DNA of 63,516 bases, filler included, from Reclinomonas americana ATCC 50394 (taxonomy: Eukaryota): NCBI GenBank assembly GCA_048213135.1. It is 6 parts of 4 records of this genome, joined end to end, with 100 filler letters (N's around TTAATTAATTAA, not from the genome) between each part and the next. Parts side by side here need not be neighbours in the genome. Positions count along the whole stretch, not along the records: positions 1 to 18,554 come from PS015526.1; positions 18,655 to 26,229 come from PS015527.1; positions 26,330 to 29,681 come from PS015527.1; 3 more parts are not named here. One strand, 5' to 3'. A program made the position numbers and the translations under genes. How positions within the stretch are numbered: the first letter of the stretch is position 1; each line of letters starts with the position of its first letter. The notes beneath the pieces were generated by a model. That model did no database searches, was not told where the DNA came from, and saw nothing but the letters and a program-made list of their open reading frames with translations. Below, piece by piece: positions 16,731 to 29,681 of this stretch.

Positions 16731-17827
16731 TTATTTCTTTACTGGCTTTCTTTCACGTTTACCTTCAATAATCTGGGTTAATGGTCTATCTTCTTTCTTT
16801 TTCCTTCTTTCACTTTGTAATTGTTTCTTTGCTTCATCTATTTGTACAACTGCTTTCTTTGGCTTCACTTCAACAGGTTTAATAACTGGTGTTTGCTGTG
16901 GCATACTTCCAGCTAACAATAAACTTTGTGCCCTTAATGACATACCATTATCCAATTCATAATTTTGTCCATTCTTACTAATTATTTTATGAATAGTATT
17001 TGACCATTGTTGTTCATATCCTTTTGAAAATGTTGTCTTCTTTAACTTATATCTAACATTATCACCAACATTTATTTTATCTTTTTCTTTTCATTCTTTT
17101 TCTCGATTTCTTGTATTTTTCTATACTGATACATGGCCGTGTCAAATGAATACTTTTCCGCTTCATTAGGACTTCTATCATTCAATGAACTATGTGGCGT
17201 CGCATTATATGCCTTTATTGTTTCATCTAATGTTGGCACCCAATCAACATTATCGTTATGTGAAAATCTTTTATATATAATTGATTTTAATGTTTTACTA
17301 AACCTATCAATTATACCTAATACATTATGATCACCAACATCTGCAGTCCTGTGACTTATATTCTCACTCTCTAAATATGTTTTCACTGCGCCTTTCCATT
17401 CAGCACCATCATCTGATGTAACATCCTTTGGTTTGCCCAAATAATTAAAACATTTCTTGATACCTTCTAATACATCATTTGGTGATTTAGATTTCAAGGC
17501 ATCTGCACAAGCTTTCCTATCAAATATATCCACTACAATAAGAATCCATTTGTAACCTTTATTTTTGGTGCTAAACTTGGTCATATCTAACAAATCCATT
17601 TGATAAGACATTTGTTTAGTTACCGTTCTAATAGGATTTTCTACCTTCTTTAACTTTCGAGTATGTATTTGTGCACCTTCTTTATTCAATAAGAAATCTT
17701 TCACTTCTTTCATAGTTACGGTTAGCCCTTCAGCCTTTGCCAACTTATAAAGCTTTGCACTGGCCGGATAATTGAACTTTACATATATACTATCTAAAGT
17801 AGTCATATTAATAATATATGAATACAA
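16731..17827 (-). CDS. rve (retroviral-like) integrase 1, split by a 1-nt frameshift near 17075-17095
   Basis: YQMDLLDM...LIVVDIFDRK...VTSDDGAEW...IIDRFSKTLK...YNATPHSSL; the -1 frame continues INVGDNVRYKLKKTTFSKGYEQQWS into ORF 16731-16955. Confidence 0.9.
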
Positions 17828-17842
17828 TTTAAAAGATTGAAA

Positions 17843-18379
17843 TTACTGTGGATAGATCTTATCTTGATATTCTTTAGCAAGTTTCATCGCTCCTTCTTTT
17901 CCGAATTTCTTAAGACTCCATTGTCTTCTTTTTGTTTTTCCTTCCTCAATCCATGAAAAATTAATGACTTTCATGATATAACCTTGATGTTTAATTTCTC
18001 TCTCAAATATTGAACCTCTGTTAAAATTGTGTGAAAGCTTACCTCTTTGGGAATCACCAACTCTCTTGTTGTGTTCACTTGAATGTTTTCCTTTTACCGT
18101 ATTTGTGTTAAGTAGTTTATCTTTGTCAATCTTTTGCATTTCTTCAAACTCATACTTCTCCAGTTCATCCGTATCCTTAACATCAACATTTTGTATAAGT
18201 ACAACTTTAAAATGATCTTTTCCAACAGATCTCATATGAGTATAGAATTTTGATGATTTGCCATCTTTGCAGTTTCGTACATGATTTCCCATACGATCAC
18301 ATAATCTCTTTTGGATTGTTGAACCAATATATATTTTATCGTCAACATCATTAACAACCTTATATACTTTTCCTTTCAT
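17843..18379 (-). CDS. GIY-YIG endonuclease with C-terminal AP2-like DNA-binding domain
   Basis: GKVYKVVNDVDDKIYIGST...RMGNH...E...LLN; C-terminus FSWIEEGKTKRRQWSLKKFGKEGAMKLA. Confidence 0.85.
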   Translation of the reverse strand: MKGKVYKVVNDVDDKIYIGSTIQKRLCDRMGNHVRNCKDGKSSKFYTHMRSVGKDHFKVVLIQNVDVKDTDELEKYEFEEMQKIDKDKLLNTNTVKGKHSSEHNKRVGDSQRGKLSHNFNRGSIFEREIKHQGYIMKVINFSWIEEGKTKRRQWSLKKFGKEGAMKLAKEYQDKIYPQ

Positions 18380-18430
18380 TTGGTTTTTGTTTGCTACTTA
18401 TATGTGTAACGTGGTAAGTGTTTAAGTCAT

Positions 18431-18553
18431 TTACGGAAAAATTGAAATTTGTTTACATGATCGCGCACGAGACAATGCTACATACTTGCATATATCATCC
18501 ATATAATCCCATTCCATGATAGAGTAGTCGGTTAAGATTGTTCGTCCCTGAAC
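18431..18553 (-). CDS. C-terminal 40 aa of a superfamily 1 (PIF1/RecD-like) helicase, truncated by contig end; absent from the ORF track
   Basis: Manual translation VQGRTILTDYSIMEWDYMDDICKYVALSRARSCKQISIFP* with motif V (QGxT) and motif VI (YVALSRA). Confidence 0.8.
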   Translation of the reverse strand, partial: VQGRTILTDYSIMEWDYMDDICKYVALSRARSCKQISIFP

Positions 18554-18598
18554 GNNNNNNNNNNNNNNNNNNNNNNNNNNNNNNNNNNNNNNNNNNNN

Positions 18599-18610
18599 TT
18601 AATTAATTAA
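18599..18610. other. Artificial six-frame-stop contig linker (also 26274-26285, 29726-29737, 58068-58079, 61516-61527)
   Basis: TTAATTAATTAA centred in identical 100-nt N44/N44 spacers. Confidence 0.95.
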
Positions 18611-18654
18611 NNNNNNNNNNNNNNNNNNNNNNNNNNNNNNNNNNNNNNNNNNNN

Positions 18655-26992: not shown

Positions 26993-27041
26993 TTTTATTT
27001 ATAATATTATATATCATTATTTCTTTAAGCCCTTTTTATAG

Positions 27042-27137
27042 AAATCTATATATAGAGAAAAATAAAATCTATATATTTAAAAAATAAAATCTATATATAA
27101 AAAATAAATTCTATATATATTTAGAAAATCTATATAT
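27042..27137. repeat. Five spaced copies of AA(A/T)TCTATATAT
   Basis: gaaatctatatat..aaaatctatatat..aaaatctatatat..aaattctatatat..aaaatctatatat at roughly 20-24 nt spacing. Confidence 0.85.
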
Positions 27138-27145
27138 TCAAAAAA

Positions 27146-28423
27146 TTATTTATATAGTTTCTTGGCTAATCTTTTTTGTTCTTTGATATCCTTAAACAAA
27201 TCTACTTCTTGATCATCCGCAAACTTGAAATTAATGACATTCTTAATATCGCATTCACAACCTCCCTCATATTGTAAGTCGCCTAATTCACATCCTGTTT
27301 TGGTGTTTGCCGAAATTGGAGCACTTAAAATAATACCATCAGTATGAGCCCATAAAACATTATTTATGTTCTTTTCAATGATTTTAGATAACATATATCT
27401 AGACTTGGCCATAATAAACGGTTTAATACGTGCAAAGTTTGTTTCATATGGTTTATTGATATCAACTACTTCTACTTTGCAATTTCCATTTTTACATGGC
27501 GTCATATGTTTTATAAACCATCGATCTTTATTTACTCGTGAATCATCTGGAGTTAATGTAAATTTTGTCGAGTTCGCCTGACATAATCCGCCCCATAGAC
27601 AATTAATATATTTCTTTATGCATTTAAATCCTAGTTGTTTAAGTTTGAATAGATTACTTATTGTCGGTCCGAATAATTTTGAACCATTAATGAACTTGTC
27701 ATATAATAATGCATTTGGTTCATCTTCGTGACTTATTAATGTTAATACATAACCTAATTCTAATGCCCTGTTTAAATCTGTGTGTGTATACCAATTGTCT
27801 TGATTTTGTATCAGTAATTTGGGGTTTGATTTGTCTATATGAACATGATATATTCCAAACTTGAAAAACTTCATCTTCTTAAATTCTTCATCCGTTATAT
27901 GTGTTAGTTTGCCTTTTGTTAGTGGAATTTGAAATTGTTGACTTTGTAAAATATATGGAAACTGTGAAATAATATCATATCTATGTCCAATGCCTTTGTA
28001 TGGTTTATCACAAAATATTAATGCACTATTTGAACACATTTCTAAAATATCATATTCATATAATTCTATTTGCTCGGGCTCTGGTGGTTTGAATCTGTTA
28101 AAATATTCTAATATTGTTACTGTTGGTCTGCCTGTTTTTAGTGTGTTGATTTCGCCTTTTGTTATCTTTTTTATTAATTTTGACTCTTTCATAAATAATT
28201 TGTATTGTTGTTTTAATGATAAACATTTCATTCTTTTTGAAACCTCATTTTTTTGAATTAATATATATGGCGATGTTTTAGGGTTGCTTCTTATATCTTT
28301 GAATTCCTCGTTTGTGAGTGAATCTTTTTTTATAGCTTTAGAGTATATGACAATCTTTTTATCATCTGTTTTTTGAAATACTATTACTTTTCTCTCATTA
28401 GGACTTATTCCGTGAACTTTCAT
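27146..28423 (-). CDS. Short, divergent family B DNA polymerase-like protein (425 aa, no recognisable exonuclease domain)
   Basis: Motif A RYDIISQFPYIL, motif B KKYINCLWGGL, motif C WAHTDGIIL, followed by ELGDLQYE. Confidence 0.78.
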   Translation of the reverse strand: MKVHGISPNERKVIVFQKTDDKKIVIYSKAIKKDSLTNEEFKDIRSNPKTSPYILIQKNEVSKRMKCLSLKQQYKLFMKESKLIKKITKGEINTLKTGRPTVTILEYFNRFKPPEPEQIELYEYDILEMCSNSALIFCDKPYKGIGHRYDIISQFPYILQSQQFQIPLTKGKLTHITDEEFKKMKFFKFGIYHVHIDKSNPKLLIQNQDNWYTHTDLNRALELGYVLTLISHEDEPNALLYDKFINGSKLFGPTISNLFKLKQLGFKCIKKYINCLWGGLCQANSTKFTLTPDDSRVNKDRWFIKHMTPCKNGNCKVEVVDINKPYETNFARIKPFIMAKSRYMLSKIIEKNINNVLWAHTDGIILSAPISANTKTGCELGDLQYEGGCECDIKNVINFKFADDQEVDLFKDIKEQKRLAKKLYK

Positions 28424-28489
28424 TTTTATATAATCTATATACTTAATATTTCTTTAAACCATTTTTAAAAAAATATTTAATTAAAAAAT

Positions 28490-28846
28490 CTATACTTTCT
28501 TTTTTTGTTTGATAAGTGAAATGTCTGCTTTCTTTGGCTTGTAATATTTCTTTTCTTGATCGTGAATAAATATTTGGAATGAATCGGGTTTATCATCTGC
28601 ATATAATTCGGGTCCATCTTTATAATCTTGTGCAAAAATATGGACTTTATCGCCAAATTTTGTGCTTACTGACGGCGTCCATATATCTTGATCTTGGAAG
28701 TGAATTGCAACACCAATGAAACCGTCTTCATCTTTCATACTATTTGATATACCTTGCACAAGTTCTCTTATCTTTTCTAAACTCATTTTTTTATTAACAA
28801 CTGCTCTTATTGTATCTGCATAATAATTCTCCCAATTTAATTTCAT
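28490..28846 (-). CDS. Viral hypothetical protein (118 aa)
   Basis: Clean ORF preceded by the TTAAAGAA motif. Confidence 0.65.
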   Translation of the reverse strand: MKLNWENYYADTIRAVVNKKMSLEKIRELVQGISNSMKDEDGFIGVAIHFQDQDIWTPSVSTKFGDKVHIFAQDYKDGPELYADDKPDSFQIFIHDQEKKYYKPKKADISLIKQKKKV

Positions 28847-28928
28847 TTATATATAATATCTATATATAAATATTTCTTTAAGACATTTTTGAAATTCTAT
28901 ATAATTAAAATATTTGTATATTTTATAG

Positions 28929-29681
28929 ATGGCATATAATCAGATTTTTAATGACATTGTCAAATTACAGAATAAGAAAAGTACAAAATCTGTAGAGAGC
29001 AGTTTATTAGATAAGTTGTATGAGAAACCCAAAAAAGATAAAGGATTAGAGGCAACGACATTTAGTCATCCAACAGCGGGATACTATCAACAGGCTGATT
29101 TATTATTTTTGCCAAATGATCAAGGTTATCAGTATTGTTTAGTTGTTGTTGATCAGGGTAATAGACATGTTGACGCGGAACCATTAAAAACAAAAAATAG
29201 CAGTGATATATTAAATGCATTCAAAGCAATCTATAAAAGAAAAATATTGACTGTTCCAAGAAGTTTAAGAACAGATTCAGGAAATGAATTTAAAAATGAC
29301 ATTGTTAAAAAAGGATTGGAGGAAATGGGAATCATATTAACATTCGCAAAAACTGGCAGACATAGACAAGTCGCACTAGCAGAAAGAAAAAATCAAACTA
29401 TTGGGACAGTCATTCATAAAATCATTGTTAATGATACTTTGGCGACTGGTCATGCATCATCGGCGTGGGTTAGTACATTGCCGTCTATTATTACAGTTAT
29501 AAATAAACATGTTGATGAAAAAGGAGAAAATAAAAAGCCAAAGAAAAAGAGTTATGCCAATCCAAAATTAAAATTATTAGAAATGGGGCAAAAAGTGAGG
29601 GTAATGTTAGATAATCCGAAAGATGTGACAGGAAATAAATTAAGTGGAAAGTTTAGATCATCCGACATACGATTTGATCCT
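28929..29681 (+). CDS. rve integrase 2, 3' truncated at contig end
   Basis: QQADLLFLP...LVVVD...DAEPLK...LRTDSGNEF...ALAERKNQTIG (D-D-E intact); GQKVRV...GKFRSSDIRF. Confidence 0.9.

Follow-up and report, generated by a model that had tools for sequence, protein, structure and literature searches.

The AT-rich island at positions 16116-29681 of a 63,516-nucleotide stretch of DNA from Reclinomonas americana ATCC 50394 (assembly GCA_048213135.1; the whole of this stretch is called the window below) contains two different integrases of the rve type, INT1 and INT2, and these probably belong to two mobile units: a provirus of the polinton-like kind represented by Tlr1 of Tetrahymena, and a separate unit made up of a PolB-like gene and its integrase. 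We favour this two-unit reading because each integrase has a conserved replication partner of its own, a large superfamily 1 (SF1) helicase in the case of INT1 and a PolB-like protein in the case of INT2, and the two modules never occur together in the relatives examined. The island has a GC content of 30.9% (12,363 called bases) and the rest of the window one of 57.3%. In the record it is composed of piece A (up to 18554), which is host DNA followed by 2.4 kb of viral sequence, piece B (18655-26229), which is wholly viral and has four sized gaps, and piece C (26330-29681; 3.35 kb), which is wholly viral and has no host sequence.

The two integrases

Both genes score above the gathering cut-off of the Pfam rve family (PF00665; 32.6 bits), with 43.1 bits for the core of INT1 and 36.2 bits for INT2, and the profiles of both families match the integrase cores of human T-cell lymphotropic virus 2 (HTLV-2) and prototype foamy virus. 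The catalytic core of INT1 (17072-17827, minus strand), as seen in Pfam and profile searches, carries a D-D-D triad of the DD35D type. In a profile search the aspartate of its GIIDRF motif is aligned to the catalytic glutamate of the HTLV-2 integrase core ('GLVER'); it lies 35 residues past the second aspartate (D132-D167 in the numbering of P0004, the homologue discussed below) and is nearly invariant among 26 relatives. The strict D,D-35-E triad is absent from INT1 and present in INT2, whose D, D and E are invariant among 38 relatives. By its sequence, then, INT1 is a member of a DD35D clade of rve integrases, and catalysis by such an enzyme is chemically conceivable and seems plausible. The chromodomain PF00385 is found in none of 33 INT1 homologues and in 87 of 120 INT2 homologues (among the matches listed).

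INT2 (28929-29681, plus strand), an rve DDE integrase recognized through Pfam and comparison with its homologues, carries the motifs ALAERKNQ and GKFRSSDIRFDP and ends at residue 251, where the contig ends. Homologues are about 350-370 amino acids (aa) long, and about 100-110 C-terminal residues are absent from the window copy. Between INT1 and INT2 there is 31% identity across a 143-residue stretch of the catalytic core and no similarity elsewhere, so they are not inverted-repeat duplicates of one gene.

The window copy of INT1 is interrupted. Its C-terminal part, with the tail VGDNVRY..KGYEQQWS (16731-17090, minus strand), lies in a different frame from the core, and the two frames overlap in an A-rich run at about 17072-17090. 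P0004, an INT1 homologue of 355 aa that is 97% identical, is encoded by one uninterrupted frame, and the tail segment is colinear with its residues ~243-355. Because P0004 reads straight through, the window INT1 must be frameshifted or mis-sequenced, and this copy would appear to be either decaying or simply misread.

A sequence-only reading made before this analysis had placed two rve integrases at these positions, had put an aspartate at the third catalytic position of INT1 (in IIDRF), and had denied that the two were duplicates carried in terminal inverted repeats (TIRs); all of this agrees with the results given above. The Polinton-type tail it reported for INT1 (VGD.VR..KGY...WS) is present, though in another frame than the core, and the motifs it listed for INT2 (LAERKN and GKFRSSDIRFDP) are likewise there, in a gene that is cut short by the contig end.

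A helicase partner for INT1 and a PolB-like partner for INT2

On the minus strand of piece A the viral genes run in the order helicase end, GIY-YIG gene, INT1. The helicase is represented by its last 40 codons (18434-18553, minus strand; ..YVALSRA..), cut by the contig end, and this segment matches the helicase C-termini of 15 metagenomic loci in phmmer searches at E<0.02 (best 1.7e-8). We had considered it as the end of a penton gene and dropped that assignment in view of these matches. The helicase open reading frames (ORFs) of the relatives are 1,220-1,420 aa long and combine an HNH motif with an SF1 helicase domain; judged by them, the remainder of the window helicase, some 1,190 codons, is not in the assembled sequence. 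There are 33 metagenomic loci in which 300 nt or more of sequence precede an INT1-type gene. In 16 of them the helicase ends directly upstream of that gene and on the same strand, and it does so in all 14 testable loci among L017-L034, the closer relatives (31-42% identity). The IMG/VR locus L061 shows the same helicase-INT1-type arrangement.

Synteny with these loci also bears on the join between pieces A and B. Piece B opens with the N-terminal 179 aa of a DUF5901 protein, likewise cut by the contig end (18655-19193, minus strand; Pfam 27.2 bits, cut-off 26.4). In L047 a DUF5901 protein is followed by the helicase and then by the integrase, and L025 has a weak penton homologue and then a 99-aa ORF ahead of its helicase and integrase; these matches support the adjacency of A and B. 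If the two pieces are adjacent, the linker between them hides at least about 3.6 kb, because the rest of the helicase gene is missing. The DUF5901 protein is a putative minor capsid or penton protein, 'penton' being suggested by its position.

Helicase and integrase abut directly in the relatives, and in the window a GIY-YIG homing-endonuclease-like gene stands between the helicase end and INT1 (17843-18379, minus strand; PF01541 at 27.6 bits, with matches to PHROG homing endonucleases). A GIY-YIG gene also lies just upstream of the INT1-type gene in L041 (497-1084), and such genes are found near INT2-type integrases in L001, L003, L004, L007, L013 and L014.

The neighbour of INT2 is a protein-primed PolB-like gene (27146-28846, minus strand), recognized by profile search, which in the window is made up of two ORFs, p118 (28490-28846) and p425 (27146-28423), both transcribed divergently from INT2. 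A homologue of p425 adjoins the INT2-type gene in 14 of 16 IMG/VR loci. Most relatives encode the protein in a single ORF of 620-650 aa, and in L006 (8051-10006) the N-terminal part of that ORF matches p118; the gene is split into parts of about 120 and 420 aa in the window, in L001 (8042-9744) and in L003. Pfam gives no match for this gene in the window or in its relatives. The p425 family profile matches the DNA polymerase of phi29 at E 4.7e-4 over 42 columns around a catalytic motif, and the nearest Atlas clusters of p425 carry DNA_pol_B_2 (score 0.98); on these grounds we describe p425 and p118 as protein-primed PolB-like and no more. Searching IMG/VR with a seven-sequence PolB alignment found again only six contigs that were already known. 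The closest IMG/VR relative of INT2, at 50% identity, is in L001, a true virophage with Sputnik-type capsid proteins, an Ulp1-like protease and the same split PolB-like gene. No capsid or protease gene is visible on piece C, which also carries p162 (26504-26992, minus strand).

The capsid genes and the module to which they probably belong

The major capsid protein (MCP) gene (21129-22607, plus strand; 492 aa, with a 20-N gap at 22540-22559) has no Pfam family and no sequence match in the PDB. Comparison of its AlphaFold2 model (pLDDT 69, pTM 0.68) with BFVD by Foldseek yields 104 matches at E<=0.001, foremost among them capsid proteins of nucleocytoplasmic large DNA viruses, adintoviruses and virophages. 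We therefore take the product, on the strength of this model and of profile hidden Markov model (HMM) matches, to be a major capsid protein of double jelly-roll-like fold and of a rare family: the word-indexed collection holds three relatives, the best 50% identical, and of 1.84 billion cluster representatives 12 match at E<=0.001, 5 of these at E<=1e-30. The virophage-type MCP families PF21915 and PF22031 are not matched by the island MCP.

The evidence points to these capsid genes belonging with the helicase-INT1 module. The MCP HMM matches ORFs in L025, L060 and L061 only, all of them helicase-bearing, and in none of the 16 INT2-type loci. Compared by hhalign, the island MCP profile and a 446-aa ORF of L025 reach 97% probability (E 9.6e-11, 373 columns); with a 540-aa ORF of the PolB-type locus L006 the figure is 0.3%. 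The island also has an A32-like packaging ATPase (19228-20302, plus strand; Pox_A32 at 37.1 bits), which is 29% identical to that of L025 (phmmer 6e-17) and matches that of L006 at 3.5e-10. It is the restriction of the MCP family to helicase loci, and the closeness of the ATPase to that of L025, that would assign the capsid genes to the INT1 lineage. Taken jointly, L025, L060 and L061 have the kinds of genes found on pieces A and B, and in these three loci there was no PolB-like match and no second integrase.

From the side of INT2 the picture is the same. No helicase was found within 10 kb in any of the 16 INT2-type loci. Whole viral records were available for 6 of these 16, and each of the six has a single rve match; four have a completeness of 90% or more, and one of the six, which is 24.6 kb long and has inverted terminal repeats, is rated complete. 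This count does not include L019, L025, L027, L032, L047, L060 and L061. Two gene-pair modules, SF1 helicase with INT1 and PolB-like gene with INT2, are thus separately conserved. The near-identical INT1 homologue P0004 is located on a 17.8-kb contig; in the 5.8-billion-protein collection that holds it the best relative of the MCP is 50% identical and the best relative of INT2 69%, so that the contig is without near-identical copies of either. Scans of IMG/VR with the single MCP, INT2 and INT1 proteins, and with the INT1 family and MCP alignments, found nothing, and phrase searches of the open-access literature did not turn up any virophage or polinton-type element described as having two rve integrases.

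Other genes of piece B

The packaging ATPase gene is interrupted by a 358-N gap (19338-19695). An ORF start of 36 aa precedes the gap, and the fourth residue past it aligns to residue 37 of the 236-aa ATPase of L025; the 358 N correspond to about 119 codons, against some 33 missing N-terminal residues. Judged by this alignment the gap looks over-estimated, with few residues, if any, missing. Between the ATPase and the capsid gene lies p262 (20314-21102, plus strand), with a weak phospholipase A2-like match that is below the cut-off (E 0.0019); its product might be a capsid-associated lipase. Downstream of the capsid gene there is a fibre-like protein (22601-23452, plus strand; weak PHROG matches), and L025 has a fibre gene in the same neighbourhood. 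Pfam detected no family of maturation or cysteine proteases among 15 island ORFs, though the gaps could hide one.

The fibre gene and zn206, a Cys-rich ORF (23957-24577, minus strand), are convergent and are separated by an AT-rich non-coding stretch of 500 bp (23453-23956) in which the GC content falls to 17%. It has short hairpins (e.g. 23462-23492) and a 21-nt inverted repeat (23720-23740 with 23805-23825), and might act as a terminator region or mark the boundary of an element, and in the latter case would be a candidate junction between units. Further along is p84 (25659-25913, minus strand), a small DUF5754-like protein by Pfam. DUF5754 proteins adjoin integrases of both clades on unrelated contigs, L012 (882-1076) and L061 (14368-14643). 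L012 had suggested to us that p84 might link piece B with the INT2 module, an idea that we dropped because the DUF5754 protein of L061 adjoins an INT1-type integrase.

Promoter-like motifs

A 16-nt pattern, AAAATGNNTTAAAGAA, occurs three times in the island, where 0.003 occurrences are expected, and stands 25-42 nt upstream of the start codons of p425, p118 and K150, a lysine-rich ORF of 150 aa without a Pfam family that lies outside INT1 at the left end of the island (16236-16688, plus strand). A near variant of this motif is found upstream of p162. The shorter box TATATAGAT was found 10 times, with 0.48 expected; four copies lie upstream of p162, together with AAAAAGGGCTTAAAGAAA, and upstream of K150 there are TATATAGATTT at 16165 and AAAATGAGTTAAAGAA at 16194. 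A compound signal of the form TATATAGAT(T) + AAAA(A)TGNNTTAAAGAA(A) can be recognized upstream of all four genes, K150, p162, p425 and p118, at 16165-16209, 27020-27136, 28433-28494 and 28856-28890, and may serve as a promoter of early genes, perhaps recognized by a helper giant virus. Within the window a stricter 18-mer is confined to piece C; it has one exact match in the virophage locus L001 (18213-18230), 20 nt upstream of an ORF.

Joins and boundaries

Every junction with host DNA lies inside a gap. The left one is hidden by a 205-N gap (15911-16115), across which the GC content drops from about 0.5-0.56 on the host side to 0.22-0.34 on the viral side, and the right one is hidden by linker 3 (29682-29781). 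This linker, linker 1 (18555-18654) between pieces A and B and linker 2 (26230-26329) between pieces B and C are copies of one artificial 100-bp spacer, N44-TTAATTAATTAA-N44, which is present five times in the window; the other two copies stand between host-only stretches (58024-58123 and 61472-61571), where the genes on the two sides of the spacer are different ones. Spacers with stops in all six frames are put in when contigs are concatenated without sequence evidence, the spacing and sometimes the order of the contigs being unknown. The N44-TTAATTAATTAA-N44 joins thus give no sequence support for linkage, gene order or 'islands' across them, and linker 2 is the sole basis for linking INT2 to the capsid genes.

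Two ORF fragments are open to linker 2, a 97-codon ORF end on its left (25937-26227, minus strand) and a 43-codon ORF start on its right (26331-26459, minus strand). They have no significant relatives among the loci and are not tied to one protein. In the assembled part of the island, matches resembling terminal inverted repeats were limited to promoter-like AT-rich sequences and the linkers, the outer ends being in gaps, and no Rfam family reached its gathering score between 15000 and 31000. Beyond linker 3 a host gene resembling topoisomerase 3-beta (29782-32716, minus strand; Toprim region, and a TOP3B zinc ribbon at about 30015-30530) heads toward the linker. If that join is real, the island would lie at or just past the 3' end of this gene.

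Relation to known elements

Pieces A and B, like L025, L060 and L061, agree in their kinds of genes with Tlr1 as published. Krupovic, Yutin and Koonin (2016; PMC5499653) describe the Tlr1/SF1-helicase group of polinton-like viruses as having a capsid protein, a minor capsid protein, a packaging ATPase, an integrase of the RVE type and a large protein with an SF1 helicase, and their account gives Tlr1-type elements neither a maturation protease nor a stand-alone protein-primed PolB (pPolB). The island differs from elements of the Tlr1 type, which replicate through a fusion of the helicase with an inactivated polymerase, in that only 40 helicase codons are assembled, in the aspartate at the third catalytic position, in the GIY-YIG gene between helicase and integrase, and in an MCP of a sparsely sampled family. 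Piece C, with its PolB-like gene beside an rve DDE integrase, recalls the pair of pPolB and chromodomain rve integrase described for Polintons/Mavericks and mavirus; it differs from these in having no visible capsid or protease genes, and the chromodomain is seen in homologues of INT2, beyond the part of the window copy that is assembled. As to virophages of the Sputnik and mavirus type, the island MCP does not match PF21915 or PF22031 and no protease was found, whereas L001 has all of these.

According to the account of Hackl et al. (2021; PMC8547959) there are two versions of rve integrase, one accompanied by pPolB and one by a long helicase ORF. The mid-GC endogenous mavirus-like elements of Cafeteria presented there also have two predicted integration enzymes in one endogenous virophage genome, but in those elements an rve integrase is combined with a tyrosine recombinase, while both enzymes of the island are of the rve type and come from different clades. 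A 2026 preprint on polisuviruses (10.64898/2026.10.13.758929) reports that integrations can lie in tandem and that some genomes have replicases of two classes; it describes pPolB as 'consistently paired with DDE integrases' and interprets some cases as PolB-integrase cassettes mobilised into viruses. Two classes of replication module, a pPolB-DDE pair and a homing endonuclease near a replicase are common to those viruses, as described, and the island. The reported cassettes are bracketed by repeats, whereas all boundaries of the island are in gaps.

One element or two

Under the two-unit reading, unit 1 would be an endogenous Tlr1-like polinton-like virus oriented along the minus strand and extending from about 26.2 kb to 16.1 kb, with the rare double jelly-roll MCP, the DUF5901 protein, the A32 ATPase, the fibre, the SF1 helicase, the GIY-YIG gene and INT1; INT1, with its D-D-D triad and without a chromodomain, would be the native integrase of this virus. 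Unit 2 would be the contig 26330-29681 with the Polinton signature pair, a PolB-like gene divergent from INT2, and might represent a PolB-integrase cassette lacking capsid genes, or else a second provirus that is mostly unassembled and of which one end is seen. Each integrase would insert its own element, and the island would have arisen by integration of the two side by side or one within the other. An integrase with a chromodomain might direct insertion preferentially to silenced DNA, for example to a resident provirus. The physical adjacency of the units, the order of events and any activity of either are inferred.

A number of observations weigh against two units, and several of them speak for one composite polinton-like virus of about 18 kb or more that contains both modules and has an outward-reading integrase at each end. 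Such a virus could belong to a lineage in the course of exchanging or accreting its replication-integration module, and the element could be served by both integrases or, given the frameshift in INT1, by INT2 alone. One set of capsid and other morphogenesis genes is visible, between the two integrases, and two complete proviruses are not seen; the order of the pieces in the record is host-virus-virus-virus-host, with host DNA on both outer sides; the ORF fragments that face each other across linker 2 are on the same strand and compatible; GC3, the GC content at third codon positions, is 0.24 in one half of the island and 0.25 in the other; and the assembled 13.6 kb plus the hidden 3.6 kb or more falls in the usual size range of such viruses. 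K150, at the INT1 end, shares both the 16-nt motif and the TATATAGAT box with the genes of piece C, which is easiest to explain by one virus reaching both ends. The shared promoter-like motif had been claimed by the sequence-only reading as a sign of common family, and its excess over expectation is confirmed; it would also be expected of two elements that use the same transcription system, however, and is not decisive. Terminal repeats or target-site duplications delimiting either unit were not found, the outer ends being in gaps, and long relatives of unit 1 are few (L025, L060, L061, L047, L032), most INT1-type loci being shorter than 3 kb. Genomes that appear intact and have replicases of two classes are reported in the preprint cited above. 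Against the composite virus, the modules are combined in none of the 16 INT2-type loci and in none of L025, L060 and L061, which have the gene kinds of pieces A and B without a PolB or a second integrase; the six whole records have one rve match apiece; no close MCP or INT2 copies accompany P0004 in the protein collection; and the linkage of INT2 to the rest depends on an artificial linker. On these grounds we think a single composite virus unlikely, if worth keeping in view.

The joins invite another explanation, that piece C, and possibly piece B, comes from another locus or from another copy of the provirus and was brought here in assembly, in which case there would be no such island with an integrase at either end. 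All joins inside the island and at its right side are spacers of the kind also placed between host-only pieces, linker 1 passes over most of a helicase gene, the one sized gap in the ATPase gene appears mis-estimated, and piece C has no host sequence. Random ordering would, however, hardly put three consecutive viral pieces between host DNA in a 63.5-kb window with no other AT-rich island, the ORF fragments across linker 2 again face each other on the same strand, and the genes on the two sides of linker 1 stand in the order found in L047 and L025, so that this join, at least, looks genuine. We regard an artefact as improbable.

Returning to the two-unit reading, of the three origins that had been proposed from the sequence, a dual-integrase virus, a nested integrase-bearing transposon and two related proviruses at one hotspot, the two that involve separate units are favoured here, and the dual-integrase virus less so, in view of the separate modules and the single rve match in six of six records. 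The same proposal had the integrases at opposite ends of the island and pointing outward. Both do read outward, but K150 lies outside INT1 and the 'ends' are assembly gaps.

Implications

The island brings to notice a clade of rve integrases that have an aspartate at the third catalytic position and are tightly coupled to a large SF1 helicase, as well as a family of major capsid proteins that is very sparsely sampled. Should the island instead be one functional virus midway through replacing its replication-integration module, a Tlr1-like polinton-like virus that has acquired a complete PolB-integrase pair with the helicase-integrase pair still kept, which we consider doubtful, it would end in rve integrases of two clades, a DD35D enzyme and a chromodomain DDE enzyme, with possibly two target preferences, and would be a living intermediate of those exchanges of integrase and replicase that up to now are deduced only from phylogenies. 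Exchange of whole replication and integration modules is a way in which the small integrating DNA viruses of protists evolve, but it is rarely caught in the act. With a helicase-integrase and a PolB-integrase module within a few kb of one capsid set, the R. americana island offers a place to ask whether such swaps begin as tandem or nested insertions.

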